Shown one piece after another: positions 35,241 through 50,574 of a DNA stretch of 64,000 nucleotides. Source of the DNA: a virus; the IMG/VR virus record IMGVR_UViG_3300032516_000003, positions 1,341 through 65,340 of that record; one strand, given 5' to 3'. The notes beneath the pieces were generated by a model that worked only from the letters and a program-made list of their open reading frames with translations, made no database searches and was not told the origin of the DNA. Position numbers and translations under genes: made by a program. How positions within the stretch are numbered: position 1 is the stretch's first letter; each line of letters begins with the position of its first letter.

Positions 35241-35250
35241 GTCTTATACC
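35241..35250 (-). promoter_or_regulatory. TGGTATAAGA extended -10-like box
   Basis: minus strand, 24 nt upstream of first gene of inverted operon. Confidence 0.45.
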
Positions 35251-35274
35251 AGCATTCTGTGCTACCATGCGGCC

Positions 35275-35484: not shown

Positions 35485-35622
35485 GTTCCCGCTGGCCATC
35501 GCCGGTTCTATCTCGCCTCGCTCGTGGCGGGCGGCCTCACCGGCTGCGGTCACCATGCACCTGGTGCGCTCTCCAGGCACATCGCCTTATGCCACCGACC
35601 GTGTGCCGTCTTGCAGGCGATG

Positions 35623-35654: not shown

Positions 35655-38600
35655 ATGCCCATCTCCTCACACCAAATTGGGGGTCTCATCGGTGGCCAGC
35701 AGGCCATGTTCGGGAATTTCCATTCCTACGCTCAGCAGATCAGTCCCTATGGCCAGCAGGGTCCTGTTGGCTACTCCAACCCCATGGCTGGCATGGGCGA
35801 GATGATGCAGCCTCCGCCAGCACCGCACGCCGAACTGCAACGGATGGGTGAGCAGTTCGGCACCGGCGCGGTGGGGATGATGGGCCACATCCCGGGCGCG
35901 ATGGGGATGATGGGGGTGGCCGGCGGCATCGGTGGCTTGATGGGCAGCCGAGCCCTAGGCGCGGTAGGTGGTGCGGCTTCGATGCTAGATCCCTTCTCCG
36001 CCGGAATTGGCGGCTTCGCGCGGGGCATCGGCTGGCAGAGTGGCGCCGGCATCGGGGCGAATCTAGGCCGATTGGGATCGATGGGTATCGGTGGTATTGC
36101 CCGCGCCGGCGTGGCTGGCCTAGGTGGAGCAGCGCTCGCGGCAGCCCCGGCGATGTTGGCCACGGAGGCCATTCGGTACGGGGCCGGCCAGATGGTCCAG
36201 GGTGCTCAGTACCAGAACCAGGTTGGCAACGTCCTCCAGAACCAGTTTCGCTTCCTCAGCCCCGGCGGTGGCACCGGCGGCTACGGCTTCAGCGGCCAGG
36301 AGCGCAAGGGCATCTCCGACATGATGCGGGAGATGGGTCACAAGGAGATGATGTCCACTCCCAGCGAGATGCTGCGATTGCTGCAGCAGGGCGCCGGGAT
36401 GGGGATGTTCAAGGCTGTCTCTGACGCCAAGGAGTTCAAGAAGAAGTTCCAGGAGATGGTGGGCACGGTCAAGGAAGTGGCCAAGGTGATGAACACGAGC
36501 CTGGAGGGGGCGATGCCCTTCCTGGCCCAGGCGCGACAGCAGGGCTTCTGGACGCCGCAGGACATCCTACGCAACGCCACCATGGCCCGCTCGACGGCCG
36601 CCGCCACCGGGATGTCAGTGGCACAAGTGCAGGGCATGATGGGTCAGGGAGCCCAGATGGCGCGTGCTGTGGGCGCTCAAGGGCGGGCAGGTGCCAGGGG
36701 CATGGCTCGGTCTTTGGAAACAGCTGCGGCCATGGTCGGCGGTCCAGGCAGGGCCGGTATGCTTTCCGAAGAGCAAGTCGGGGAGCTCACCGGGGGAATG
36801 CAAGGACCCGAAGCCGTTGCTGCTCTTGCTCAGAACATGCAGGAGGCCTCAACCCGCTTCGCACGGAGCAACGTGGCCCGCTGGACCATAGCAGCCCTTG
36901 GGAGGGACAAGTTTAGCCAACTTGATCCCGCCAAAGTACGAGCTCTCTCCGAGGGGAGGATCTCGATCGGTCAGATAGGCGGCGGGGCACGCGGCAACAT
37001 CGGTCGTCAAGGCGCTGCCAACTTCGTGATGAACGAGGAGCGTCTTCGTGGGCAACTGATTGAGATGGGTCCCCAGGCACAGATGGGCTTTGCCGCTGGT
37101 CTCGTCGGTGAGCGCTTGTACAGTGAGAAGCCGATGGACCAGTACGTCGTGCGCCGCATGTTGAAGCGTTTCGGTATTGCGCAGACCAGCCAAGAAGCCG
37201 ATGCCAAGGCTAAGATCATGCGCGACCTTCCGCGGATGATGCAGGAGATGAAAGTACGCAGCACGCTGGAGATGGATCAGACGGAACGAAACCAAGAGGA
37301 TCAACTCAGTCGCTCGTGGGATGGTGTCAAGCGCCAGATGGGCAAGTGGTGGGATGCCAACGTGAAGGAGCCGCTGCAGAAGGCTGGCGCCGATATGGCT
37401 CATTCGGCCAGTGAGTGGTTCGAGCGGGCCTCGGACCGGATGTTTGGTCGGGTGCAGAAACGCCATCAGATCGGGGCTGTCTCCCAGATGGGTGGGCGGG
37501 CCATGAGCGAATACGCTCTGACCGGCAACACCCGGCAGATGGAGATCGCATTCGGTGAACGTGGAAGTGCAAAGATAGGTGGTGGAGCTGGAGCTCTGGG
37601 CCTGACAGGCTTTGATGCAGGCATGGGGAACGCGTTTGGTGGCCAGGGAGTTCTGCGCGGTGCGCAGAATCTGTACTCCGGCGCCATGGGGATGGGGTTC
37701 AACAAGACCAACGCCAACATCGAGTGGCTGGCCAGAATGGGTGTGAAGGAAGGGGCGGTTGGGACGGAGGCGGAACGCCAGGCGTTGCTCAAGCAGGGTG
37801 GGTATCTAAGCGGCCGTACCAGCGGCGGTCCTGGAGTTGGTGCCTACCGTGTGATGGCCGAGGCTGATGTGAAGAAGGCGGTCAGCGGCTATCAGGCGGC
37901 AGTTGGTGGAGACATCACCGAGGAGCGGGCCAAGGGATTGGGCTATGACTCTGCCAAGGAGGCCAAGGTCGCCCTAGAGAAGGGCAAGCGGATCATGGGT
38001 GATCCATCCTTGGGCTTGAAGATGCAGCGCATTGCCCGGGAGACCGGCAAGTCCGGTCGCGAGCTGCTGGAGGAATACACTCGTCGTGCCCAGAAGGGTG
38101 AGTTCGGCGAAGACGCGAAGTCCTTCCTCGGTCAAGGTGACCGAGCTGAGCAAGTCCATCGTCTCCATGCCGCCATGGACCAAAAGACACGGGAGGGCTA
38201 TGGCGGCGGTGATCTGCGCGGCGAAGCCCCCAGTCAGATCGATCCTTTCCGTATGACGGAGAAGCAGCTGGCTGAGCACACGGAGAAGCAGGAAGCTCGC
38301 CTGGCCGAAGCTGCTGGTGGGGAGGGCGGAGGGCCCATGAAATGGGTCCGTCGTGGCGTAGAGGCGCTCGACAAGGCAGCAGCCTTCGCTGGCGGTCCTC
38401 TGGCAGATCTCGCTTCCTCCATGGGCCTCACGACCACAGGCTTGGCCAAGAAGCTCATGCCCAAGGCGGTGACGCAGGAGTCGGTGGGCAAGCTGCGCGA
38501 GAAGGGTGGTCCGATGATGGACGAGGCCATCCGGACTCTCGCCAATGACAAAGCTACCCCAGAGGAGAAAACGAAGGCCCGGCAGTTCTTGAAGGACTTC

Positions 38601-39557
38601 AGATCGGAAAACAAGGATCTGCCGGATGACCAAGCGCGGGCACTGGAGGTCATGGGCGGCGAAGGTGGCAATCGGCAGGAGGCCGACGCTGCGATGAAGG
38701 GCATCGCTGGCGCCATCGGCACACGTGATCAACAAGCTGTCGCAGCACTGGTCGGTCGCCGCGTCAATCGTATGAAGCAGAACATGGGCGAGCAGTACGA
38801 TCAGGCCATGGCCCTGACCACGGCTGTTGGTGCTGAGGCTTCGGGTCTCACCGGCATCGGCAAGGAGGTTGAGGGTCTGGTGAAGGGTGCTGGCACGGAA
38901 GATCCGTACAAGACCCAGGACCGGCTTTCCAAGATCGCAGCTGCAGCCTCGAAGATGGATCCCAAGCAGCTGGCTGAGTTCAAGGAGAAGTTCGCTGGGG
39001 TGCCCGGGGCGGAGATGATCAGTGAGGCCTTGGAAGGTGGCACTCAGGCCAAGGAGACCAGCAAGGCGTTGGTGACTGGCGGCAAGGGTGGCATGGGCCG
39101 CGCCTACCAGTTGGTGCAGGAACTTACCGGCAGGAAGCTGACGACGGCGCAGTACAGAGCGTTGCAGAAGGGCGACAAGAAGGCAGCCGAAGCCCTGCTG
39201 AGCGGTGTTGAGGGTGGCCGCAAAGAGATGGCCGAGAAGCTCTTCGGCGCCATCGGTTCGCAGGACGAAGCAGCGGCGACGGACGTCCAGTCCCGGATGG
39301 CCGGCGAGCGGGCCGGCGGGGCCCTCACCGGGGTCAAGCGGCGGACGCCGGAAGAGGTTGCGGAGGACATCGCCAAGAAGGCCAAGGGTGGGGAGATGTT
39401 TGGCCGCCTAGGCAGCGGCGAGGGAATGCACCAGCAGATGCTCATCACCAACCGGCTGCTGGGGGATATCGCGGCGAAGGTTGGCAAAGAAGGCAACACA
39501 GGTGCCCCAGCCGAGAAGCCCGTGGGTGGAGCACAGAAGAAAACAGAAGTGAGGTAG
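35655..39557 (+). CDS. tape-measure-like protein (1300 aa, Gly/Ala/Met/Gln-rich, helical repeats)
   Basis: TTAGGAGCCGAGC-ATG; size, low complexity and position ahead of Dit-/Tal-sized genes. Confidence 0.6.
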   Translation: MPISSHQIGGLIGGQQAMFGNFHSYAQQISPYGQQGPVGYSNPMAGMGEMMQPPPAPHAELQRMGEQFGTGAVGMMGHIPGAMGMMGVAGGIGGLMGSRALGAVGGAASMLDPFSAGIGGFARGIGWQSGAGIGANLGRLGSMGIGGIARAGVAGLGGAALAAAPAMLATEAIRYGAGQMVQGAQYQNQVGNVLQNQFRFLSPGGGTGGYGFSGQERKGISDMMREMGHKEMMSTPSEMLRLLQQGAGMGMFKAVSDAKEFKKKFQEMVGTVKEVAKVMNTSLEGAMPFLAQARQQGFWTPQDILRNATMARSTAAATGMSVAQVQGMMGQGAQMARAVGAQGRAGARGMARSLETAAAMVGGPGRAGMLSEEQVGELTGGMQGPEAVAALAQNMQEASTRFARSNVARWTIAALGRDKFSQLDPAKVRALSEGRISIGQIGGGARGNIGRQGAANFVMNEERLRGQLIEMGPQAQMGFAAGLVGERLYSEKPMDQYVVRRMLKRFGIAQTSQEADAKAKIMRDLPRMMQEMKVRSTLEMDQTERNQEDQLSRSWDGVKRQMGKWWDANVKEPLQKAGADMAHSASEWFERASDRMFGRVQKRHQIGAVSQMGGRAMSEYALTGNTRQMEIAFGERGSAKIGGGAGALGLTGFDAGMGNAFGGQGVLRGAQNLYSGAMGMGFNKTNANIEWLARMGVKEGAVGTEAERQALLKQGGYLSGRTSGGPGVGAYRVMAEADVKKAVSGYQAAVGGDITEERAKGLGYDSAKEAKVALEKGKRIMGDPSLGLKMQRIARETGKSGRELLEEYTRRAQKGEFGEDAKSFLGQGDRAEQVHRLHAAMDQKTREGYGGGDLRGEAPSQIDPFRMTEKQLAEHTEKQEARLAEAAGGEGGGPMKWVRRGVEALDKAAAFAGGPLADLASSMGLTTTGLAKKLMPKAVTQESVGKLREKGGPMMDEAIRTLANDKATPEEKTKARQFLKDFRSENKDLPDDQARALEVMGGEGGNRQEADAAMKGIAGAIGTRDQQAVAALVGRRVNRMKQNMGEQYDQAMALTTAVGAEASGLTGIGKEVEGLVKGAGTEDPYKTQDRLSKIAAAASKMDPKQLAEFKEKFAGVPGAEMISEALEGGTQAKETSKALVTGGKGGMGRAYQLVQELTGRKLTTAQYRALQKGDKKAAEALLSGVEGGRKEMAEKLFGAIGSQDEAAATDVQSRMAGERAGGALTGVKRRTPEEVAEDIAKKAKGGEMFGRLGSGEGMHQQMLITNRLLGDIAAKVGKEGNTGAPAEKPVGGAQKKTEVR

Positions 39558-39560
39558 CTG

Positions 39561-39773
39561 ATGGCATGTCGACAAGAGGTGAGCAAGCGGTACATGGTGG
39601 CCAACGGCCGCGTGGTCACCGTCTACGTCCGCAACGGCATCGTGCCGGAAGATCCTCTGATCAGTGGAGCCCGGTGCAAGGCCTTGTCGGTGCGTACCGG
39701 TGAGGTCAACGACGCCAAGCGGGTGTCGCGCACGATCAAGGACTACCTGATCAAGACTAACATCTCCATCTAG
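39561..39773 (+). CDS. hypothetical small protein, 70 aa
   Basis: ORF directly after TMP-like gene. Confidence 0.5.
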   Translation: MACRQEVSKRYMVANGRVVTVYVRNGIVPEDPLISGARCKALSVRTGEVNDAKRVSRTIKDYLIKTNISI

Positions 39774-39781
39774 GAGCTGAC

Positions 39782-41005
39782 ATGGCCGATCCGGTGTTCG
39801 TGGAGTTGCAGACCGACGCCTTTGCCGAGAACTTCGATCGGTTCAAGTTCAGGCCGGCCAACGGCGGCGTGCGGCGGCCGGTTCGTGGCTTCGAGATCAA
39901 GGAAGACACCTACGGGATGATCAAGGTCATCCGTGCCGACGGGACCATGATCCCCCTGACCGATGCCGCCGGCCCACTCTCACCCTCTTCTGGCAGCGAG
40001 ACCGGTGCCGGCTCGGGTGTACCCCAGCAGGGAGCGACAAAGCCGCGTACTGGAGCCACCTACAACTACTCCAACTTCATCATCCAGAGCGTCGTGGAGA
40101 GCCGGCAGGAGAAGGCCCAGGTCCTGGAGACCTTCGGTGACACCTTCGTGTTCTTCTTCGGTGAGCGGCCGCGCATCCTGCAGGTCAGTGGCATCCTGAT
40201 GAACACTCTGGACTTCAACTGGCGTACGGAGTTCTGGTACAACTACGAGAACACCCTCCGCGGCACCAAGCTCGTCGAGCAGAACGCCCGCATCTACCTC
40301 TTCTACGACGATCTGGTCGTGGAGGGGTACATGCTGGGCGCCAATGCTCAAGACCTGGCGGAGAACCCGTACCACATCCCGTTCAGCTTCCAGCTCTTTG
40401 TCACCAATCACCAGTACCTCGGCAACATTGGCCAGGAGGACTATCCGATCACTCACGCGGTCAACCTCAAGCCGCTGCTCACGGCGACGGAGGTCATGGA
40501 AGCCAAGAACATCCTCAAGTCGCTGGGCATCCAGACGCAGAAGACCGACACGCTGGTGGGCTCGTTGCTCGACTCATTCCGCTCCATGAGTTCTGGTGGA
40601 CTCACCGTCAAGGCCCCATTGATTGAAGGCGTCAGTTTGAGCCTCCAGTCGGCGGCCACGATGTTCTTAGACGTGGCCAAGACCTTCTTCGGCATGTTGA
40701 TCCCTTCTCGCCTGATGCCGTACCGCACCAAGCTGCGCGACAATCGGGATGAGTTCATGAACAACTACGAGTGGGGCTACATCTCCGATGATCGGGTGAC
40801 CAAGGCCATCCTTGATCAGCAATTCGCCAGCATGTTCGCGGTGGGAGGAGCCATCGTGGCTGATCTGGTAGGCGTCGGCATCAATGCGCTCGTGCCAGGA
40901 GTAGGTTGCCCGTTGCTGGAGGCCACGCATGGCCTATTCGCCACGAGTTCACCGATGCCGGTATACAACACCTTCGCGATCCGGACGACTGGATACGGAC
41001 AATGA
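39782..41005 (+). CDS. distal-tail (Dit)-like structural protein, 407 aa
   Basis: TAGGAGCTGAC-ATG; position after TMP. Confidence 0.6.
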   Translation: MADPVFVELQTDAFAENFDRFKFRPANGGVRRPVRGFEIKEDTYGMIKVIRADGTMIPLTDAAGPLSPSSGSETGAGSGVPQQGATKPRTGATYNYSNFIIQSVVESRQEKAQVLETFGDTFVFFFGERPRILQVSGILMNTLDFNWRTEFWYNYENTLRGTKLVEQNARIYLFYDDLVVEGYMLGANAQDLAENPYHIPFSFQLFVTNHQYLGNIGQEDYPITHAVNLKPLLTATEVMEAKNILKSLGIQTQKTDTLVGSLLDSFRSMSSGGLTVKAPLIEGVSLSLQSAATMFLDVAKTFFGMLIPSRLMPYRTKLRDNRDEFMNNYEWGYISDDRVTKAILDQQFASMFAVGGAIVADLVGVGINALVPGVGCPLLEATHGLFATSSPMPVYNTFAIRTTGYGQ

Positions 41006-44000
41006 CCGGCGGCCACTCTCTTGGTCTTCGCTGCTTCCTGGAGGGCATTGAGATCCCGGTCATCGGGGCCAACGTCACTGTCGTTGCCAATGCGCCGGTA
41101 GCTGCCCAGATCCAGGTGATCGGCACCGACCGGTTGCTGACCATCATGCCGCGTACGGTCGTTCACCTGTTCTTCTACGACTACGTCGATGCCGCCAACC
41201 CGCTCAGCCAGGAGGACATCAACAACGCCGGCCTCGACCCAGCTGATCAAGAGCTGTCCAAGTACCGGCTGCTCTTCATGGGCGAGGTGCAGGGCATTGG
41301 CTTCCAGAAGAATTCAGCGGAGCGGGCCGCCATCTTGAACTGCGTCGACTTCTCCAACTACTGGGACACCACCTACCAGTACAACTTCGGTGGCCAGCTC
41401 TTCGGTGGCCAGCAGCAAGCAGCCTTCATCGGGGCCAACGCCAACCTCTTCACAAGCCCTCTGGGTCATGGTGTCGGCACCTTCGCCGCGCTACTGCAAG
41501 GCAAGTCGGCCAACTTCCCCAAGATGAAGGGTCTGCTCGCCGGCGTCGTGCGGTGCCTCGAAGCAATCGGTGGCTGCTACTACGGCAAGGACACCTTCAA
41601 GGGTGCCAACGACTTCACTTCCCTGGCCGAGCTGCGGCTGAAGATCTTGCAGCAGATCACGGCCGCGGAGTTGGATGACAGCACCGCCAAGCTGTTCGCG
41701 CGCAAGGCCTTCAACATGTGGATGAACCAGCAGATGCAGGGGCTGGGCAAGCTGGTGACCTTCCGGGGTGTGGTGCAGATCCTCGACCAGTTCATCTTCC
41801 ATGAGATCTACCCCAATCCCTGCGCCCGCTACATTCCCGAGCAGCAGGTGCAGCAGCAGCAGGCCTACTACGCGGACGCCGCCACCGATCCACGCTTCCG
41901 CAGCATCTATGATGCTTACCGCAAGCTGATCAAGCTACTCAAGTCGGCGAAGAGCAACCTCAGCCCCATCGCCATCACCGAGAAAGAGATCAAGGCCGCG
42001 GCCTCTGATCTATCTCAGGCCGGAAGAGTGCTGGATTCACTCATCGCCAATGAGGCCTCGCGCTTTACCAGTGGCATCGGCGCGCAGATGCTTTCCGTGA
42101 ACCCGGAGGTGGAGCTGGCGCGAACCTGGAAGGTGCTGGGGGGCAGTTCGCATATCAATCCGGTGGATGTGTCTACTGCACTTGACGTGATGGCTCGTAG
42201 GGCAGCCTTGGGCTACATCGACACGGCGTTGAAAAACCTGCAGAGTGCGGTCACTGGCAAGGCGATCAAGAAGCAGAAGATGGTCACCACCACGCAGCGT
42301 AGTCGGGTCAATAACCAGATCTTGCGGCCTGACATCTGGTTCGTACCTCCGCCGCGCTGCAACGTCCTCTTCCCCGAGATGTACGAGAGCTTCCAATGGC
42401 AGCGCAACTTCCTGCGGGAGGTCTCTCGCATGGAGCTGCAGACTACGCATGAGATTCTTGGGGATGATGCGCTCTTCAACGGCCGCTACTACGCTCCTGA
42501 CGTCGCTGACATGCGGAAGGGGGTGAAGCTCTCCTCCCGAAACTTCTCCAGGCTGACCATGGAGCACGAGCTCTACACAGGGATCATCCCCATGTACGAG
42601 AAGCTGAGCGAGGCCAACCTATTCGCCATGGGCAGCAAGCAGGTGAACGTCGGGGGCGCCAAGGTCGGCTACGCCCAGCGGGCCGTCAACTTCATGTACT
42701 TCAAGCACCGCTTCGCCTCGCGGCAGATGGGAGCCAGTGGCCGCTTCAATCCGTGGTTCGTGGCTGGGTTCCCGGGGCTCTTGATTGACAAGCCGATGGA
42801 CGCGGTGAACCTGGCGATCTCCGGCCTACCGGTGGAAGACGCCCTGAAGGTGCTCGACTTCCAGCCGGACGACCCGTCGGAGATCACCAGAGCGGTGCTG
42901 CTGCAGAAGCTGGTGCCGATGCAGTACATGGGCATGTGTGCACAGCTGACACACAATCTCAGCCAGCAGGGTGGCCGCACGGAGTATGCCTTCACTCAGG
43001 CGCGAGTCCATCGTGAGGATGCCGAGTTCTTGGGCGTGGACAAGGCCACGGTCAACAAGAAGGTGGGTACTGGCTCGCGGACCTATGTGGTCAGTGCCGC
43101 GGTCACCAAGCCGCCAACCAAGGGGATGCTCGGCAGATATGGCGGTCCGCTCTCTTCAGTGAAGGATGTATCTTCCTCGTACAAGGGCCGCTACCTTACT
43201 GGCTTGCGGGACACGCGCAAGTTCCTTGGCACTGGCTCCAGCAGTGCCATCGCGCAGGAGTATTACCCAATCGATGGCGCGAAGGTGAAAGCCTACGAAG
43301 TCAAGGAGAGCTTCGACCGGCGAGCCAGAGTGAAGATCAATAAGCCCATCGAGGACGCCATCCGGCCACCCTGGATCTGGGACGGCTGGACCAACCTGAA
43401 GATCGGCGACACGTACCTGCAGTTCTTCGGCACCAACGCAATCACCGACATCGAGGGCTTCACTGCCACCGGCACGGCCGCAATCAATGCCATCGGCTCG
43501 GGCCTGGCCGAAGACTACGGCATGGTGATCGAGTCGTCTCAAGGAGTGGCCCAGGGCAGCGGCGTCAATCCCATGACTGCGCCTCAGACCCCACTCACAC
43601 CATTCTCGGGGGCGGCTCCCAACTACGGCCCACCTACGGCTGGACTGGGAGCACCATCGACGCCGAACCAACGGCCCCCGTCCACCAGTCTCTCGGCCTA
43701 CGACCAGAAGATCTCCGCGGCCACAATCCTCGCCATCGAGAAGGAACGGACGATCGAGAACGCGGTGGACTATCTGGTGCGGCTGTACAGTTACCTCAAG
43801 GCCAACAGCCTGGACGTGGGCCAGTTCCTACGCAACTACTCCTGGCGCCCAGTGGCGACGTTGGTGGACATCCTGGGCTCTTCCAAGTTCACCATCAGGC
43901 CAGATCCAGCCGATCCCGACAAGTTCGTCACCAGCGGACAAGAGGGCTTCCACAGCCGGGCCTTCAGTGATGAAGCCAACCTCTTCGGGCTAGTAGATCC

Positions 44001-44187
44001 GCAGGTGGGCAACATTCTGGGACTCAAGCGACCACCAAGCGGCATGAATCTGATAGGTCGCTACCTCATGTCTATGACAGATCCACACTATTCGGCGGTG
44101 GCGAAACTCGATGTTCGAGGTGCCCGACGCAAGGTGGTGCGGGAGTACGTGAACGAACTCACCAATTCCCGAGGCTTGCTGGGATAG
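41002..44187 (+). CDS. large tail/baseplate protein (Tal-like), 1061 aa
   Basis: ATGA coupling to Dit-like gene; size and position. Confidence 0.65.
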   Translation: MTGGHSLGLRCFLEGIEIPVIGANVTVVANAPVAAQIQVIGTDRLLTIMPRTVVHLFFYDYVDAANPLSQEDINNAGLDPADQELSKYRLLFMGEVQGIGFQKNSAERAAILNCVDFSNYWDTTYQYNFGGQLFGGQQQAAFIGANANLFTSPLGHGVGTFAALLQGKSANFPKMKGLLAGVVRCLEAIGGCYYGKDTFKGANDFTSLAELRLKILQQITAAELDDSTAKLFARKAFNMWMNQQMQGLGKLVTFRGVVQILDQFIFHEIYPNPCARYIPEQQVQQQQAYYADAATDPRFRSIYDAYRKLIKLLKSAKSNLSPIAITEKEIKAAASDLSQAGRVLDSLIANEASRFTSGIGAQMLSVNPEVELARTWKVLGGSSHINPVDVSTALDVMARRAALGYIDTALKNLQSAVTGKAIKKQKMVTTTQRSRVNNQILRPDIWFVPPPRCNVLFPEMYESFQWQRNFLREVSRMELQTTHEILGDDALFNGRYYAPDVADMRKGVKLSSRNFSRLTMEHELYTGIIPMYEKLSEANLFAMGSKQVNVGGAKVGYAQRAVNFMYFKHRFASRQMGASGRFNPWFVAGFPGLLIDKPMDAVNLAISGLPVEDALKVLDFQPDDPSEITRAVLLQKLVPMQYMGMCAQLTHNLSQQGGRTEYAFTQARVHREDAEFLGVDKATVNKKVGTGSRTYVVSAAVTKPPTKGMLGRYGGPLSSVKDVSSSYKGRYLTGLRDTRKFLGTGSSSAIAQEYYPIDGAKVKAYEVKESFDRRARVKINKPIEDAIRPPWIWDGWTNLKIGDTYLQFFGTNAITDIEGFTATGTAAINAIGSGLAEDYGMVIESSQGVAQGSGVNPMTAPQTPLTPFSGAAPNYGPPTAGLGAPSTPNQRPPSTSLSAYDQKISAATILAIEKERTIENAVDYLVRLYSYLKANSLDVGQFLRNYSWRPVATLVDILGSSKFTIRPDPADPDKFVTSGQEGFHSRAFSDEANLFGLVDPQVGNILGLKRPPSGMNLIGRYLMSMTDPHYSAVAKLDVRGARRKVVREYVNELTNSRGLLG

Positions 44188-44211
44188 CCCATGAGGGGGT
44201 ATAACAGGAGC

Positions 44212-44505
44212 ATGGATCAGTGGCTGCCGTCCTTCGTGGATGAGCTGGAGAAGATTGCTGTCAGTCGCCACTTGTCCACTTATGGGCCGCAGTCTCGCAA
44301 GGGTCGGCGTCCCATCCGCGTCAAGAGAATGATCGAGAAGGACACTGCCTTCTGGAACAACCGTGCCAAGGCCAAGCTGGAGAAGGCCGAGACGCGGGAT
44401 GATGACCAGGCCAAGTACTACGAGCACGAAGGCTACCGGCAGTACACCAGCACGCCGGAATCTGGTGACGACGGCAGCCAGCGCTACTTCGCCAGCGGCG
44501 CCTAA
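44212..44505 (+). CDS. hypothetical protein, 97 aa (SFVDELEKI N-terminus)
   Basis: ACAGGAGC-ATG. Confidence 0.55.
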   Translation: MDQWLPSFVDELEKIAVSRHLSTYGPQSRKGRRPIRVKRMIEKDTAFWNNRAKAKLEKAETRDDDQAKYYEHEGYRQYTSTPESGDDGSQRYFASGA

Positions 44506-44514
44506 GGAGTGGCC

Positions 44515-45108
44515 ATGTACCAGTCGTTCTTCGACGAGTTGCAGAAGATCTCCGCGGCTACTGAGCCCAAGAAAGAGGAACCGGGCACGGGAACCATGCG
44601 TGGGGCGGTGGCGGCTCGTCCCTGGGTGACTTCGGCGGCCAAGGGTGCACTACCTACGGCCAGCCTGGCGGCGCTCCTGCCGGTGAACCCCAAGATTCGG
44701 CCAGGGGCGGAGACGGCAGAGATCATGGCCGCGCAGGTGAAGGCCATGAAGCGGAAGTCCAAGGTGATCGCCGGCGCAGCTGCTCTGGGCACTGCCGCTG
44801 GGTTGGCCGACAAGTACATGAAGGACTGGGCAGCCAAACATCCACGCGCCAAGGTCACCAAGAAGTTCGAAGGTCAGCTGCAGCGAGAGAAGGGACAGTT
44901 CAAGACCGGCGCCATGGCGGGCGATCTCCGGCGGAAGGGACTGGGTGGCGTGACCGAGCCCCCTTTTCCGACTGAGGACAGCAAGCAGGTAGCCGAGGGC
45001 CAGCTCAACAGCTCTCAGCAGCAGGCCAGCTTCGCGACGCATACACTGCCCCGCCACCTGGTGCGGCCAGGGCCCTCAATCAATCAGACTGCTGCGCTCC
45101 CGAGGTAG
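44515..45108 (+). CDS. hypothetical protein, 197 aa (SFFDELQKI N-terminus)
   Basis: AAGGAGTGGCC-ATG. Confidence 0.6.
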   Translation: MYQSFFDELQKISAATEPKKEEPGTGTMRGAVAARPWVTSAAKGALPTASLAALLPVNPKIRPGAETAEIMAAQVKAMKRKSKVIAGAAALGTAAGLADKYMKDWAAKHPRAKVTKKFEGQLQREKGQFKTGAMAGDLRRKGLGGVTEPPFPTEDSKQVAEGQLNSSQQQASFATHTLPRHLVRPGPSINQTAALPR

Positions 45109-45110
45109 GC

Positions 45111-45881
45111 ATGAACCCGGTGACGGAGTTCTTGGGCCTGCAGGAGGGAGCCGAGAAGCAAGCGGCCACTGACCTGAAGGGCAAGCAGGTCCGGGAGCTG
45201 GAACTGTGGCACACCTGGCAGCAGGGTGGCAAGCAGCCTGACCATCTCCGCCCGCTGATCCAGTCGCTGCGTCCCTTCATCAAGAGCCAGGCTGACCTAT
45301 GGGCCACCCGCAACCGCGACATCCCGCCGGCGGCCATCCGCGCCGAGTTCATGAATCAGGCAGTGGCGGCCCTGGAGACCTACGATCCATCCAGAGCCGC
45401 GCTCAACACCCACATCGGCCACCGGCTCAAGAAGGCCCAGCGCTTCGTCACCTCGTACCAGAACCCAGCCCGCATCCCCGAGAACCGCATCTACCGGGTT
45501 CGTGACCTACAGGATGCCACCACGCATCTGGATCAACAGTTCGGCCGGCCACCCACGCAGCTGGAGATTGCTGATCATCTCAAGTGGTCTCCACGGCAGG
45601 TGGACCTGCTGCAGCGGGAGATCCGCAAGGCGCGGCCAACTAGTCAGTTCAGTTCGGACCCCTTCAAGACCACGCCCTCTCGCCACCAGGAGGTCTTGCG
45701 ACTGTTGCCCTACGAGCTCAGTTCCGATGAGCGCGCGGTCTTCGAGCACCTGTACGGCATCGGCGGCAAGCCGAAGCTGGAGCCGGGACAGATCGCGCAG
45801 ACGTTGAACATGAGCGCTCCCAAGGTCTCGCGGCTGAAGAAGTCCATCGCCGAAAAATACTCCCGTTACGCAGGCGTGTGA
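45111..45881 (+). CDS. sigma-70-family sigma factor (regions 2-4 like)
   Basis: GAGGTAGGC-ATG; C-terminal LSSDERAVFEHLYGIGGKPKLEPGQIAQTLNMSAPKVSRLKKSIAEKY fits region 4.2 HTH; central QLEIADHLKWSPRQVDLL fits region 3. Confidence 0.7.
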   Translation: MNPVTEFLGLQEGAEKQAATDLKGKQVRELELWHTWQQGGKQPDHLRPLIQSLRPFIKSQADLWATRNRDIPPAAIRAEFMNQAVAALETYDPSRAALNTHIGHRLKKAQRFVTSYQNPARIPENRIYRVRDLQDATTHLDQQFGRPPTQLEIADHLKWSPRQVDLLQREIRKARPTSQFSSDPFKTTPSRHQEVLRLLPYELSSDERAVFEHLYGIGGKPKLEPGQIAQTLNMSAPKVSRLKKSIAEKYSRYAGV

Positions 45882-46402
45882 TGATTGAAGAGTGGCGCAG
45901 CATAACAGATCACCACAACTACGAGGTCAGTAGTCTGGGTAGGATTCGTCGAGTAGGTCGAGCGAGATCAGCGCGTGTAGGCAGGATCCTTGCAGGAGGC
46001 GTGACTTGGAATGGCTACCGCTTCTTCACCGCCAGTTGCCACTGCGAACGAACTAACGTGTACGTGCACATAGCCGTGGCTCAAGCGTTCTTGGGCCCCC
46101 GACCCTCTGGCAGAGTGGTTAACCACAAGAATGGGGTCAAACTTGACTGTAGAGTAGCCAACTTGGAGTACATCACACAGAGCGAAAACATCAAACACGC
46201 TCTAGCGTTGGGGACACATCCGCGTGGCTCAGCCCGAACTCAAGCCAAACTTCACGAAAATGACGTGCTGCTGGCCTGGGAGTTGAAGAGCGACGGATGG
46301 GGACCTACCAAGATAGGACGAGCTCTCGGAGTCACCCAATCGATTATTTCTGACATATTCCGTGGCAAGCGTTGGATGCACGTCCAATACACGGGGGGCT
46401 GA
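45878..46402 (+). CDS. HNH homing endonuclease (NUMOD4-like N-term, HNH, C-terminal HTH)
   Basis: EEWRSITDHHNYEVSSLGRIRR; HIAVAQAF...NHKNGVKLDCRVANLEYITQSEN; C-terminal LLAWELKSDGWGPTKIGRALGVTQSIISDIFRGKRW. Confidence 0.85.
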   Translation: MMIEEWRSITDHHNYEVSSLGRIRRVGRARSARVGRILAGGVTWNGYRFFTASCHCERTNVYVHIAVAQAFLGPRPSGRVVNHKNGVKLDCRVANLEYITQSENIKHALALGTHPRGSARTQAKLHENDVLLAWELKSDGWGPTKIGRALGVTQSIISDIFRGKRWMHVQYTGG

Positions 46403-46403
46403 G

Positions 46404-46628
46404 ATGGCGACGAACCAAATCCAAGCTGACCGTGACAAGCGCCTCGACAACCTGAAGAAGGCCACGGACAAGTGGGCCCAGGACGAGACGGACCGCCTCA
46501 ACTACGAGAAGGACTTCCTCAAGTCAGTGCTCAAGGGCCGCACTGGCGCCGGTCGGCTGGCCACCCAGAATGTCGTGGACACCTGGGGCATCGTGGTGGA
46601 CGCCATCAAGAACTTCCTGGAGGGCTAG
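46404..46628 (+). CDS. hypothetical protein, 74 aa
   Basis: ATG right after HNH stop. Confidence 0.5.
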   Translation: MATNQIQADRDKRLDNLKKATDKWAQDETDRLNYEKDFLKSVLKGRTGAGRLATQNVVDTWGIVVDAIKNFLEG

Positions 46629-46631
46629 ACC

Positions 46632-48203
46632 GTGGCTGTCACCTCCAGACGTCTACTGGCTGCAGGGGGCTGGATCTATGTCTACGACATCCAGGGTCGG
46701 AACGGAGTAGTCGTCAGTGCCCAGACCTACCAAGATACCGGCAACAACGTCCTCCAAGCCTGCACAGCCTCTGGCAACGACTTGCGGGTGTACCTGCGGG
46801 CCAGTTATCCCCTGGTGAACGTCCATGGCGTGGCCGGCACTCTTACACGCGCCCCTGACTCTGGGTTCTATACCGGCTACGTCGATATCACGCTGACTGC
46901 CGCCGGAAACATCATCGCCAAGGTCACCACTCCCGACAGCACCGAAGGCCCGCATGACACTGTCATTGTCGCCGTGGAGATCGCCCCGGCGATCCTCACC
47001 CTGAGTTTCATTGGCGGCTACCCGGGATCGCAGACCGAGCTCAAGGCGGGAGATGCCTTTCAGATCCATGGCACCACTGATCGTCCTTGCGTAGGCGTCG
47101 AGATTCTCGACTTCGAGGCATGCCAACACGCAGTGCTGACTTTCGCCTCGACCACATCGTTCACCGTGGCCGGGGTGATCGCCGACCGTGGCACCGCCGC
47201 CGTAGCACGACCAGCACGATTGCGCGCCCGCAACGCTGCAGGAGCCTACGGAGCAACCCGCGACACCAACTCTGGTGGCGGCTCCGTCGACGGCACCGAC
47301 GTAGTGAAATGCAACAACCTGCATCCGACCGTAATATTCGGAACGATCACCTACCCGACTGGCCAGACGGCACTCAAGAACTCCGAGTCGGCCTCTGTCG
47401 TCGTCGTGACGGCCAACTTGGATACGATTCTCTACGACAGCCCCAACAGTCAGTTGGCGATCACCGACCCTACGGCCATCGGGTCGCCCAAGATCGTGAC
47501 CCGCATCGCCGGGAACTACAATGTCGCCACGAACAACCTGCGAGCAGAGGCAGTCCGGTCGGCGAACAATGCCCATACCATCGCACAGACGGTGGTCCGC
47601 ATCGCGCACATAGCGGCCGTCATCGTGGTGACGGAACCTTATGCACGCCTGCGGGCCGGCAACCCCAACGGAGACTACACCTGCTCGATCTCCAGTGATC
47701 AGGAGCTCCCAGTAGCTCCGTCGCTACTCTCGTCGGCCAGCCCCAACTCGGGCGTGCTGCAGGGTGCAGGTTGGGTAGGTGGCCTGCTGCTCTATACCAG
47801 GGTCATGCGCGTAACGCCTACGGACGTCTCTGGCACCTATGGTTGGCGCGATCTGTCGGCGACCAATCGGGCGGGGATCGTCACTACCTCCATCACCGGA
47901 GATGCGAACTACGTCATCGGGGGCTTCACCGCTCGCAGTGTGACATTCCCTGCGTTCAGCCAGACTACTCTCCTAGGAGTTGCCGTCATCGACTATGCGA
48001 AGTTGAGGGCTGGCATCTTCACGGCGACCAATCAGCCGTCGATCAAGAATCCAACGCTAGGCAACCACGACGATCTGCTGAACACGTACACCATCGAAGC
48101 GCTGGGGGTGAACCCGACGACGATCTTTTGGAACGATGTCGCTGCGGCTAACTCGAACAGCAGCGGCACCGCACAGCTGCTCGACATCGAGGAGCTAGTC
48201 TGA
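46632..48203 (+). CDS. beta-rich structural (tail/fibre-associated) protein, 523 aa
   Basis: Thr/Ser/Gly/Val-rich composition in structural block. Confidence 0.65.
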   Translation: MAVTSRRLLAAGGWIYVYDIQGRNGVVVSAQTYQDTGNNVLQACTASGNDLRVYLRASYPLVNVHGVAGTLTRAPDSGFYTGYVDITLTAAGNIIAKVTTPDSTEGPHDTVIVAVEIAPAILTLSFIGGYPGSQTELKAGDAFQIHGTTDRPCVGVEILDFEACQHAVLTFASTTSFTVAGVIADRGTAAVARPARLRARNAAGAYGATRDTNSGGGSVDGTDVVKCNNLHPTVIFGTITYPTGQTALKNSESASVVVVTANLDTILYDSPNSQLAITDPTAIGSPKIVTRIAGNYNVATNNLRAEAVRSANNAHTIAQTVVRIAHIAAVIVVTEPYARLRAGNPNGDYTCSISSDQELPVAPSLLSSASPNSGVLQGAGWVGGLLLYTRVMRVTPTDVSGTYGWRDLSATNRAGIVTTSITGDANYVIGGFTARSVTFPAFSQTTLLGVAVIDYAKLRAGIFTATNQPSIKNPTLGNHDDLLNTYTIEALGVNPTTIFWNDVAAANSNSSGTAQLLDIEELV

Positions 48204-48214
48204 TGTCGCTCTTC

Positions 48215-48880
48215 TCACTCAACGTGAGCCCAAGACCGTCGGTGAATGATCGACAGGATCACCTGCTTCGAGACACGGTACTGCTTGGCCAGTTTGAGAG
48301 AGCTGAGTTCTCCGATGGCGTAGGTGCTGCGGATAGTCCGCACGTTGTTCTCAGTGAGTTTGGAACGAGGATTGTTCTCTCCCTGAAGAGCCTCGGGATG
48401 TTCTTGGTAATGTTGGCGCAGACTATCGCGACGCTGCTTTTCGGACTTCTCTGTGTGTGCAGCGTACCAGGCTTCTCCTCGGCAAGTGTTCTCCGGATGA
48501 GTGTATCGGCCATTGTTCTTGCCTGTGCGTTTGTGTCCACCTCCACGACTTTTGGCATCGCGGTCGGCGTTATTATCAGCCGCAGTTCCAGAGAACAAAT
48601 GATCCGGCCGTATGCACTTGGGATTGTCGCATGTGTGGCAGCAGTGCAGTCCTGGTTGCTTTCCGTATTCCAAGAAGTACGAGACTCTATGAACCAAGTA
48701 CGACTTGAGGAAGCTCGTCCGACCCAGACAAGTCCAGCCGTACCCGTCTCTCGTGAGTCTTCCCTGCCACTCCCAACATTCGCCACTCGGGCCAAGCCCT
48801 GGTTCCTTGCTTACAAAGCCCCAAAAGGCGTCAACTTGGAGTCGGCTGAGTGGAGGTATTTCTCGAACGCCGTCTGGCAT
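48215..48880 (-). CDS. HNH homing endonuclease, antisense to the structural operon
   Basis: CAGGAGAAAATGCA-ATG at 48880; GYGWTCLGRTSFLKSYLVHRVSYFLEYG...HCCHTCDNPKCIRPDHL; C-terminal HTH. Confidence 0.8.
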   Translation of the reverse strand: MPDGVREIPPLSRLQVDAFWGFVSKEPGLGPSGECWEWQGRLTRDGYGWTCLGRTSFLKSYLVHRVSYFLEYGKQPGLHCCHTCDNPKCIRPDHLFSGTAADNNADRDAKSRGGGHKRTGKNNGRYTHPENTCRGEAWYAAHTEKSEKQRRDSLRQHYQEHPEALQGENNPRSKLTENNVRTIRSTYAIGELSSLKLAKQYRVSKQVILSIIHRRSWAHVE

Positions 48881-48930
48881 TGCATTTTCTCCTGTCCCCG
48901 ACTGTATAGCACGGCAGGAAGGGGATAACA

Positions 48931-49446
48931 ATGCCTACCAGTTTTGAATTTTTCGTCAATACTGAGCTGCCGCAGCGTGCGGTCATGCTCACCGCCTACA
49001 ACACGGGCGGGTACACAGGCGACCCTCGCTCGGCGACGCTGGACAAGATCAAGTACGCGCCAAAGGGTACTTGGTTCATCGATGAAGCTACTGGTGACCT
49101 GTGGCAGAAGCTCATTCAGATTAACCCAGCCGCTTGGGTCCAGCGATCAACGCTATCAGCACTGACCGAAGCAACCCATCATGTCCTTGACGATCAAGTC
49201 CACAACTTGGCTGAAACTTACGTCAAGGAGATCACCCGGACTATCGAGGGAGTCACAGAAGTCCTGTGTCGTACTACCGGGTCAATTCCTATCCGTCGGA
49301 CATTGCTCACGCGAGCCACGGGGGTGCTGACCCAGGTTGAGCGCATACAGTATAATGCTGCTGGTGCTGAGGTCCATCGGATGACAGGCGTCATCACACG
49401 GGCAGCCGGTAAGATCAGTTCGATAGCCTGGACCTACTCAGGGTGA
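48931..49446 (+). CDS. hypothetical structural protein, 171 aa
   Basis: GGAAGGGGATAACA-ATG. Confidence 0.65.
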   Translation: MPTSFEFFVNTELPQRAVMLTAYNTGGYTGDPRSATLDKIKYAPKGTWFIDEATGDLWQKLIQINPAAWVQRSTLSALTEATHHVLDDQVHNLAETYVKEITRTIEGVTEVLCRTTGSIPIRRTLLTRATGVLTQVERIQYNAAGAEVHRMTGVITRAAGKISSIAWTYSG

Positions 49447-49480: not shown

Positions 49481-50404
49481 ATGGCATGGGTAACGTTCAC
49501 TTGTTCTGGGACTCTGTTCCAGCAGACTTTGGCGGATCGCGCCGTGACCAACGGCTGGGTAAGGAGTGAGGCCGGGTACGACTGGATCAAGCCAGCTGCC
49601 TCCACCAACGTCGCCCTGGCGAGGATCACGCAGCTCGGCGCCATCCGCATCTACACCGAAGTCAGTGCCACCGGCTATCTCTACACCATCCTCGAACCCT
49701 CCGTCCGAGAGTCCTACGATCTCGGGACGCATACGGGGATCGGCCTTGGCTGGACTGGCTGGGGCAACCCCATCTATTGGGCTGGCCGGTCGGAGAACGA
49801 CTTGGCACGGGATTACACCTTCGAGGGTTGGATCGATTCCAACTGCATCTTCGGAAACGTGAAACCCGACGCGTCGATCACAGCAGCCACCACGTTCCCG
49901 ATCTTCTTCTGCGTCACCAAGGGATTCGACGGCGTGAACCGTCTGGTGGGGCTGGACATGCTCCCCTCCGGGGCGGCGTATCGCTGCAACGCCCGGCTCA
50001 TCTACGCCACGGACGCGCTCAACTACTGGAAGGCGGTGCAATCCGGCGGGCTCGGAGTCTGGGGGTTCGACAGCAAGGCTCGCTTGTCGAAGCTCTACGC
50101 CTTCCGTGGTGGGGTGCTCGTGGCGGACGCGATCAACCCAGCAGCCATCATCGCCAGCTTCGAGGATCCGGTGACGGGAATACCCTACGTCCTGTGCAGT
50201 CAGAACCAGGGTGTCGAGGTCTACAACGACGAGTGCGTCCTGACCATCGGTGTCACGGACTACTACTACCGGTGCCTCTACCCCACGCTGACGCCTCCGC
50301 ACACGGTGATGATGACCAGCAAGTTCTCCAACTTCAACTCTGCCGTGGCTCCTTCTCGCATCGTCACGGACAAGATACTGACCTACTGGGTCAGGAGGGC
50401 ATGA
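49481..50404 (+). CDS. hypothetical structural protein, 307 aa
   Basis: long GC3-rich ORF, weak SD. Confidence 0.65.
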   Translation: MAWVTFTCSGTLFQQTLADRAVTNGWVRSEAGYDWIKPAASTNVALARITQLGAIRIYTEVSATGYLYTILEPSVRESYDLGTHTGIGLGWTGWGNPIYWAGRSENDLARDYTFEGWIDSNCIFGNVKPDASITAATTFPIFFCVTKGFDGVNRLVGLDMLPSGAAYRCNARLIYATDALNYWKAVQSGGLGVWGFDSKARLSKLYAFRGGVLVADAINPAAIIASFEDPVTGIPYVLCSQNQGVEVYNDECVLTIGVTDYYYRCLYPTLTPPHTVMMTSKFSNFNSAVAPSRIVTDKILTYWVRRA

Positions 50405-50574
50405 TGACAAACTGCAACAAGTGCGCGAAGGAGCTCGCCGAGAAAGAAGTGGCGGCCTACTACGACTTCCCGCCAGGGACGAAGCAGCACCTCTGTCAGG
50501 AGTGCTACGATCAGTACCGGGTCGCCTGCGCTGAGCAAGGAGCGGCAACCGAGGACGCGGAGTGGGTTGGTTAG
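50401..50574 (+). CDS. Zn-ribbon protein (CNKC...CQEC), 57 aa
   Basis: AGGAGGGC-ATG, ATGA coupling. Confidence 0.5.
   Translation: MMTNCNKCAKELAEKEVAAYYDFPPGTKQHLCQECYDQYRVACAEQGAATEDAEWVG

Follow-up and report, generated by a model that had tools for sequence, protein, structure and literature searches.

What is the gene for an RNA polymerase sigma factor doing in the middle of an operon that encodes the particle of a phage; when is its product made, which promoters does it read and whose polymerase does it serve? The question is raised by a stretch of 64,000 nucleotides (nt) from the IMG/VR virus record IMGVR_UViG_3300032516_000003 (positions 1,341 to 65,340 of that record), which we analysed at its full length and refer to as the window, and in which a gene at positions 45111–45881 encodes a member of a phage sigma family that we call sigma-A. 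The reading that we favour, with a probability of about 45%, is that of a structural-operon sigma, probably associated with the virion, whose cognate promoters would be boxes of the form TG(G/T)YATAAG and whose partner in the clade of the window would be the core polymerase of the host.

The gene and the domains predicted in its product of 256 amino acids (aa) are the following.

45111–45881, plus strand: sigma-70-family gene of the sigma-A family, ATG start, 256 aa (Pfam, NCBIfam, PHROG, PDB-profile and AlphaFold/Foldseek comparisons)
45189–45461, plus strand: sigma2 domain, about residues 27–117, regions 1.2/2.1–2.4 (helices 3–38, 43–67, 73–90 and 98–117; RpoD/SigA alignment)
45480–45620, plus strand: sigma3 domain, about residues 124–170 (three helices; Sigma70_r3 above its gathering cutoff)
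45681–45872, plus strand: sigma4 domain with the helix–turn–helix of region 4.2, about residues 191–254 (four helices; Sigma70_r4 weak)

Profile and model comparisons make it nearly certain that this protein is a genuine, although divergent, member of the sigma-70 family. Pfam Sigma70_r3 matches residues 131–174 with 35 bits (gathering cutoff 25.3), and precomputed matches to it exist for almost every one of the 120 sigma-A homologues listed; Sigma70_r4 reaches 16 bits over residues 202–246, which is under its cutoff, and Sigma70_r2 is not called on the window protein and is weak on gp10 of Salmonella phage Arash, a homologue considered below. The NCBIfam models for RpoD, FliA/WhiG and SigB/F/G give weak partial alignments that all lie far below their cutoffs, with 27 bits for FliA_WhiG over residues 81–174 (cutoff 189.6) and 21.6 bits for SigBFG (cutoff 234), so that neither subfamily model is passed. 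A profile of 69 sigma-A members, the alignment of which has 34 invariant columns and in the sigma4 domain the invariant residues S235, K238, S240, R241 and K243, matched the RpoD, SigA, SigF, SigB, RpoS and FliA chains of the PDB over regions 2.2–3.1 with E values of about 1e-8; residues 84–112 align with regions 2.2–2.4 of RpoD and SigA, the best match reaches region 4 and the RpoD alignment extends to residue 244. The AlphaFold model (predicted local distance difference test score, pLDDT, 82.9) consists of helices, four in sigma2, three in sigma3 and four in sigma4, apart from a disordered linker at residues 175–187, and its top structural matches in the PDB, found with Foldseek over some 250 columns, are all sigma factors, led by models of Bacillus subtilis SigD and SigB.

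The preliminary description of the window, made from its letters and open reading frames (ORFs), had called the protein a sigma-70-family factor without region 1.1, and both points are borne out, the 256 residues being taken up by sigma2, sigma3 and sigma4 with region 1.1 absent; among hidden Markov models, Sigma70_r3 passes its cutoff, and Sigma70_r2, Sigma70_r4 and FliA_WhiG, which are of the kinds that it had named for a check, do not. In size and architecture sigma-A is predicted to be group-3-like, yet it falls outside the curated FliA_WhiG and SigBFG subfamilies. In region 2.3 the sequence LNTHIGHRLKKA aligns where RpoD has FSTYATWWIRQA, so that the protein has no WW dyad. Strong purifying selection acts on each of the three domains that bind DNA and core. 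A large protein database holds 155 homologues, nearly all of 250–260 aa and from uncultured phage contigs of at most 191 kb, and the family is phage-only; a near-DNA search against phage genomes gave no match.

The setting of the gene bears on when its product would be made. The surrounding operon and its last two genes are as follows.

35655–48203, plus strand: virion-protein operon including the sigma gene, with gaps of at most 11 nt and conserved gene order
46404–46628, plus strand: conserved 74-aa ORF, by synteny directly 3' of the sigma gene in all relatives
46632–48203, plus strand: tail sheath gene, last in the operon (phrog_15433, E 1.3e-93)

The operon runs through genes for proteins of 1300, 70, 407, 1093, 104 and 199 aa to the sigma gene, an HNH endonuclease gene, the 74-aa gene and the sheath gene, an order that is kept in six relatives with G+C contents (GC) of 40–62%. 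The name tail-morphogenesis block, used earlier for this region, is apt for the sheath gene downstream but loose for the rest, because large unannotated virion-type proteins are encoded before sigma and the sheath after it. The sigma gene sits 9.5 kb into the operon with no room for a promoter of its own, and scans for sigma70-type promoters and for terminators across the virion block returned chance levels only. Because the gene is in mid-operon, with gaps of no more than 11 nt and with both scans at chance, it is probably co-transcribed with the virion genes, and co-expression with the structural genes is what this arrangement predicts. As a fixed member of a virion operon, sigma-A would thus be made together with the virion proteins and not ahead of them. 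We note that the sigma-A clade itself is broad: as L172 and L174 set beside the window show, it spans 40–62% GC with the gene order kept, which implies very different hosts. The ORF of 74–77 aa that follows sigma is separated from it by at most 4 nt, or overlaps it briefly, in every relative; it has no family match and could be a partner of sigma or an anti-sigma.

The candidate promoters lie elsewhere in the window, in and next to its first 35 kb, which carry nucleotide-metabolism and replication-type genes on both strands.

35243–35251, minus strand: TGGTATAAG box followed by a ribosome-binding site and ATG; position kept in L002, L171 and L172
35586–35594, minus strand: TGGCATAAG box facing away from the operon; position kept in L002, L171 (as TGGGATAAG) and L172
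35624–35632, plus strand: TAGTATAAG, a variant of the box with one mismatch, 22 nt 5' of the first ATG of the operon
Starts 456, 2481, 3126, 4547, 4576 and 5731, both strands: further GGYATAAG boxes
Starts 6307, 9975, 12835, 15913 and 29129, both strands: further GGYATAAG boxes (span of all these, 456–29137)

The core GGYATAAG occurs in 13 exact copies, compared with 0.97 expected, and none of 100 shuffled sequences reached 13. Every copy lies at or before 35.6 kb, and behind most of them come AGGAGG and a start codon. Boxes of the TGGYATAAG type are conserved in position in L002, L171 and L172, the last with a GC of 42%; the operon-proximal variant is kept in L002, as TAGTATAGG, and is not kept in L171 or L172. 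The final G of the box is invariant at every site examined, a base that the selection of sites left free only partly. (Enrichment of k-mers under a maximal-order Markov model masked motif cores and was not used for conclusions on promoters.) Downstream of the minus-strand TGGCATAAG box, positions 35485–35585 form a non-coding stretch of about 100 nt that is nearly identical in L002 and opens with a hairpin (TGCCTGG...CCAGGTGCA), possibly a leader or an antisense RNA. As a candidate conserved RNA located 3' of the box at 35593 it was set aside, having a weak consensus fold, no Rfam match and no tRNA.

The tail genes gave a different result. The preliminary description had supposed that a late sigma directs their transcription from a promoter consensus of its own, distinct from TGGYATAAG, and shared by the genes at 46632, 48931, 53816 and 57484, but upstream of these four we found no common motif beyond what random positions give, nor did 21 pooled upstream regions from six related genomes yield a late-promoter consensus. 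There is little space for one, the upstream regions amounting to 3 nt, to 15 nt and to an overlap with a minus-strand HNH gene, with only 53816 preceded by a gap, of 58 nt. The supposition is therefore unsupported: no tail motif is seen, and the TGGYATAAG box itself accompanies sigma-A in three lineages.

The second and third of these lineages are represented by the only cultured phages that carry the sigma-A family, namely Salmonella phage Arash (gp10) and Vibrio phages D69, D148 and D181, whose proteins are about 28% identical to that of the window (for Arash gp10, annotated as 'RNA polymerase sigma factor RpoS', 28% with a tblastn E value of 2e-20). Arash gp10 and its D69 counterpart, VPHD69_0011, occupy the same slot as the window gene, between a virion protein of about 1100 aa with one or more small ORFs and a structural gene of sheath size, whereas the rest of the structural block of the Arash-like phages has almost no BLAST similarity to the window. 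In Arash, GGTATAAG boxes are intergenic in nine of nine cases, in a sequence of which intergenic DNA makes up only about 5.7%, and they precede non-structural genes. In D69, all eight copies of TG[G/T]TATAAG are intergenic and on the coding strand of non-structural genes; 15 nt upstream stands a −35-like GTTCAAT. On these sequence comparisons the TG(G/T)YATAAG box and the sigma-A family occur together in three lineages unlike one another in host, GC and possession of an RNA polymerase (RNAP), and the box persists in phages of 42–61% GC with hosts as unlike as Salmonella and Vibrio. The D69 boxes (L371, minus strand, 8298, 9347, 10900, 35569 and 35857) are each followed about 10 nt downstream by a short GGAG...CTCC hairpin, which suggests a conserved 5' stem-loop on their transcripts.

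Arash also supplies the evidence on packaging. Mass spectrometry of its virions recorded gp10 at 100% coverage, with 24 unique peptides and 467 spectra, together with 3516 spectra of a phage-encoded RNAP beta subunit and 1210 of beta'-C, and the second sigma of the phage, Gp196, is not in the virion list (PMC10585845). Given this abundance of gp10 in purified virions, the sigma of the window may likewise be virion-associated.

The RNAP of Arash is made up of gp206 (1525 aa; L004:5094–9671), in which beta is joined to the N-terminal half of beta', and gp216, which is the C-terminal portion of beta'. Relatives with about 52% identity (compare L023–L040) have two ORFs instead, one for a beta of about 1135 aa and one for beta'-N; the RNAP genes are always found 3' of the gene for portal, and insertions interrupt several of the copies. 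We searched for such an enzyme in five contigs of the window clade, of 95–191 kb and including ones of 168 and 191 kb. A double-motif scan of IMG/VR for beta' (D[FY]SGR...D[FY]DGD) found 69 contigs and one for beta (HGNKG...NPx4SRxNxGQ) found 99, none of them among the five, and both scans recovered the Arash-like RNAPs as positive controls, the beta scan also a beta 33% identical to that of Arash. Likewise, no RNAP-like ORF lies within −45 to +19 kb of sigma and no RNA_pol Pfam match was obtained in four relative loci. As neither scan found a beta or beta' of phage origin in the window clade, the host core is the likely partner there, and given the scans it is very probable that the clade lacks a bacterial-type beta/beta'.

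Other approaches were less telling. A third scan, for beta' (NRAPTL...DFDGD), gave at least 120 matches among giant viruses and jumbo phages, from which no conclusion was drawn, and searches with the Arash RNAP proteins and profiles returned only Arash-like contigs at identities of at least 51%, these patterns being too clade-specific. The two giant proteins upstream of sigma were considered as hidden polymerases and rejected, since they have neither a conserved motif of the DxDGD type nor a match in Pfam or PHROG, and a paper on 'Moraphage' (PMC12619734) concerns a different, T4-like lineage. Two RNAP contigs from sigma-bearing metagenomes, L346 (30% GC) and L363 (64% GC), were also rejected as not linked to the window clade; L363 is unlike the window-clade loci in composition and has no ORFs in common with them. 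The beta encoded by L363 (IMGVR_UViG_3300045747_000648), 33% identical to Arash gp206, indicates a further, deeper phage clade with a bacterial-type RNAP.

Arash and D69 appear, from their sequences, to have two sigmas and two promoter classes. The second sigma, sigma-B, is gp196 in Arash (L372:3657–4694) and VPHD69_0246 in D69 (L371:33188–33964, minus strand); the two are 42% identical, have the canonical TYAGWW residues that read the −10 element and are encoded among non-structural genes. The second promoter class is a late-class box, (G/C)CTAAAATA(T), found 25–50 nt upstream of structural genes in both phages (L003, L004, L370, L371); the genes behind it include those for portal, beta'-C and tail fibre.

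Arash, portal gene, record position 128082: example of a CTAAAATA box
D69, genes 0253, 0258 and 0052: further examples of CTAAAATA boxes

The box resembles the T4 late promoter TATAAATA, and in two places it stands back-to-back with an opposite-facing GGTATAAG box (CTTATACCCTAAAATA). GCTAAAA as a general Arash promoter was discarded, as most of its copies lie in coding sequence and only the CTAAAATA subset before structural genes is convincing. Because the RNAP genes of Arash are late-class and the enzyme is packaged, a packaged sigma would be needed to read the early promoters, and because sigma-A was detected in the particles and sigma-B was not, the pairings of sigma-A with TGGTATAAG and of sigma-B with CTAAAATA are favoured.

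The reading that we favour puts these observations together in the following way. Sigma-A would be carried in the virion and so be present when the next infection starts, at which point it would direct RNA polymerase to phage promoters with the extended −10 element TG(G/T)YATAAG, ahead of non-structural early-type genes; the enzyme that it joins would be the host core in the window clade and, probably, the packaged beta/beta' of the phage in the Arash-like phages. Its parts are not equally secure. That sigma-A reads the TGGYATAAG boxes, which their shared distribution suggests, is about an even bet, and its packaging in the virions of the window clade, argued by analogy with the Arash homologue, is a tentative proposal to which we give rather less than even odds. 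The fullest version, in which the sigma is packaged without a phage polymerase, is injected with the DNA, captures host core and starts the infection from TGGYATAAG, is on balance doubtful.

Several observations weigh against this reading. Sigma-A, lacking the WW dyad, does not have the aromatic residues by which the −10 element is melted, and sigma-B, with residues better suited to the task, could read a TATAAT-like box; sigma-B has no homologue in the window, and the best 120 of 568 matches gave no link to window-clade contigs. In the window no significant −35 partner accompanies the boxes, GAAAnn being present at about half of the sites. The promoter of Arash sigma-B is host-type, with TTGACT and TACTAT 17 nt apart, a near-consensus sigma70 promoter (L372:3780–3833), and one Arash box lies about 300 nt upstream of gp10, just 5' of gp9–gp10, which would fit sigma-A as a middle gene with the task of activating the late ones. 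Our motif scans would miss a phage polymerase that is very divergent, split or single-subunit. Finally, clearly non-structural enzymes were also present in the Arash virion preparation (PMC10585845), so that its purity is uncertain and the evidence for packaging is moderate.

Phage sigmas usually act as a late switch, as do T4 gp55 and SPO1 gp33/34, and sigma-A might by that precedent be a classical late sigma, which takes the place of the host sigma late in the infection and has virion and tail genes transcribed from promoters that we did not detect, its presence in Arash virions being carry-over. An unusual −10 element would be in keeping with its divergent region 2.3, structural genes of Arash and D69 are indeed preceded by a late-class box resembling that of T4, and the GGTATAAG box 5' of gp9–gp10, combined with the host-type promoter of sigma-B, would give a cascade from host sigma70 to sigma-B, from sigma-B to the boxes, and through them to sigma-A and the late genes. 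We nevertheless regard this explanation as unlikely, although a serious possibility: neither the window nor the pooled relatives show a motif shared by tail or virion genes, the window contains no copy of TAAAAT, the gene would lie 9.5 kb inside the very operon that it has to activate, and in Arash the packaged polymerase with sigma-A would transcribe late genes first. It is improbable, in our estimate, that the window phage encodes its own multisubunit polymerase outside the window, too divergent or split for the scans, with sigma-A as its specificity subunit. The four cultured records with sigma-A are the same four that have a full-length gp206-type RNAP, and gene position and −10 box are common to the window and the Arash-like phages, which is what such an arrangement would lead one to expect, but both double-motif scans passed over all five window-clade contigs and the surroundings of sigma are free of RNAP-like ORFs and RNA_pol matches.

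The boxes might instead be read by the primary sigma of the host or by another phage factor, with sigma-A acting elsewhere or serving as a decoy or a structural DNA-binding protein. TGnTATAAG fits the extended −10 consensus TGnTATAAT at eight of nine positions, which speaks for such a reading together with the want of a significant −35 element and the loss of the aromatic melting residues from sigma-A. However, primary sigmas require the T at −7 of the −10 element, and in the boxes that T is replaced by the invariant G; the box also persists across the GC range and the two unlike hosts given above, and all three binding domains of sigma-A are under strong purifying selection. We give this explanation little credence. 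The reading of sigma-A as a virion-associated sigma for TG(G/T)YATAAG promoters is thus the one that we retain.

The window also contains selfish nuclease genes, two of them next to the genes discussed above.

45878–46402, plus strand: homing endonuclease gene with HNH_3, NUMOD4 and a C-terminal helix–turn–helix (Pfam, PHROG), inserted at the extreme 3' end of the sigma gene
48215–48931, minus strand: second HNH endonuclease gene (Pfam and PHROG matches), at the site of the post-sheath hairpin of the relatives

The product of the first has matches to HNH_3 (E 1.3e-13), NUMOD4 (E 5.7e-7) and phrog_59 (E 9.5e-43), and the C-terminal helix–turn–helix is weak. The ORF program starts the gene at the GTG at 45878, but its likely start is the ATG at 45881, which has one base in common with the stop codon of sigma (TGA, 45879–45881). 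The GC of third codon positions is 0.58 in the HNH gene, compared with 0.82 in sigma. Six relatives (L002, L171–L174 and L373) have no HNH gene after sigma, which there runs straight into the 74-aa ORF; the HNH-free relatives include P0001 (92% identical) and P0002 (87%), and the sequence of the junction between sigma and the 74-aa ORF in L002 reappears at the 3' end of the window HNH gene. Given the six relatives without it and the mismatch in third-position composition, the HNH gene is a recent selfish insertion of the homing type that left sigma undisrupted. The domain matches, the HNH-free relatives and the junction together support the earlier suggestion of a homing endonuclease inserted beside a conserved gene. 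The element agrees with free-standing HNH_3/NUMOD4 homing endonucleases of phages in its domain set, its insertion site at a gene junction, its presence/absence polymorphism and its atypical base composition. The hairpin whose site the second HNH gene occupies is strong and lies 3' of the sheath gene in relatives (L002, 13633–13706; L171, 13300–13366). A third nuclease ORF, at 1395–2357 on the plus strand, is endonuclease VII/HNH-like by PHROG; several selfish nucleases are present in this genome. Separately, a small cysteine-rich, zinc-ribbon-like ORF (…CNKC…CQEC…) lies at about 50400–50574 on the plus strand, in an apparent gap before an 825-aa gene.

Phage sigmas are well known, and the sigma-A gene by itself is ordinary, its homologue having already been annotated as a sigma in Arash and by the Joint Genome Institute (JGI). 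What is unusual is that it is locked into a virion operon across a large and almost entirely uncultured clade of phages of about 180–190 kb and 40–62% GC, that its Arash homologue is abundant in virions and that one promoter element accompanies it through lineages with little else in common. Jumbo phages have been held to carry an RNAP or a sigma and never both, no sigma having been found in any group 1 phage and group 2 phages following a strategy of 'sigma but no RNAP' (PMC7824862). The window clade matches the group 2 strategy, apparently with a sigma alone, and the Arash-like phages, with sigma-A and beta/beta', break the rule; they differ from the window clade in their polymerase, of fused beta-beta'N and beta'C, and their second sigma, neither of which was found for that clade. 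Should sigma-A reach the cell with the particle, it would represent a new route to immediate takeover of the host, lying between the 'inject own polymerase' strategy of N4 and phiKZ and the 'encode sigma for later' strategy of T4, and sigma-A of the Arash-like phages would be the first known sigma-70-family specificity subunit of a virion-packaged phage multisubunit polymerase. Such a system, of a small protein, a 9-bp box and the core polymerase of the host, would be directly testable.

Among bacterial factors, sigma-A is closest to the group 3 sigmas (the sigma-28 proteins FliA/SigD, and SigB/SigF), with which it has in common a length of about 250 aa, the domains sigma2, sigma3 and sigma4 and the absence of region 1.1, and among which it finds its best structural matches (B. 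subtilis SigD and SigB) and its weak FliA_WhiG and SigBFG alignments. Unlike them, it has the aromatic residues of region 2.3 replaced, is phage-specific and has no flagellar or stress-response context. As a phage-encoded sigma that would steer polymerase to phage promoters it resembles T4 gp55, SPO1 gp28 and gp33/34 and phiEco32 gp36. Sigma genes of the T4, SPO1 and phiEco32 type are expressed before the genes that they control, whereas the sigma-A gene lies in mid-operon among virion genes and has a homologue in virions. In its location among structural genes, in the presence of the Arash homologue in particles together with a polymerase and in the candidate phage-specific promoters before early-type genes, the sigma-A case is instead like those of the virion RNAP (vRNAP) of N4 and the virion RNAPs of phiKZ and AR9. 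However, N4, phiKZ and AR9 deliver a polymerase without a sigma-70-family subunit, while the candidate cargo here is a sigma, apparently without a phage polymerase.

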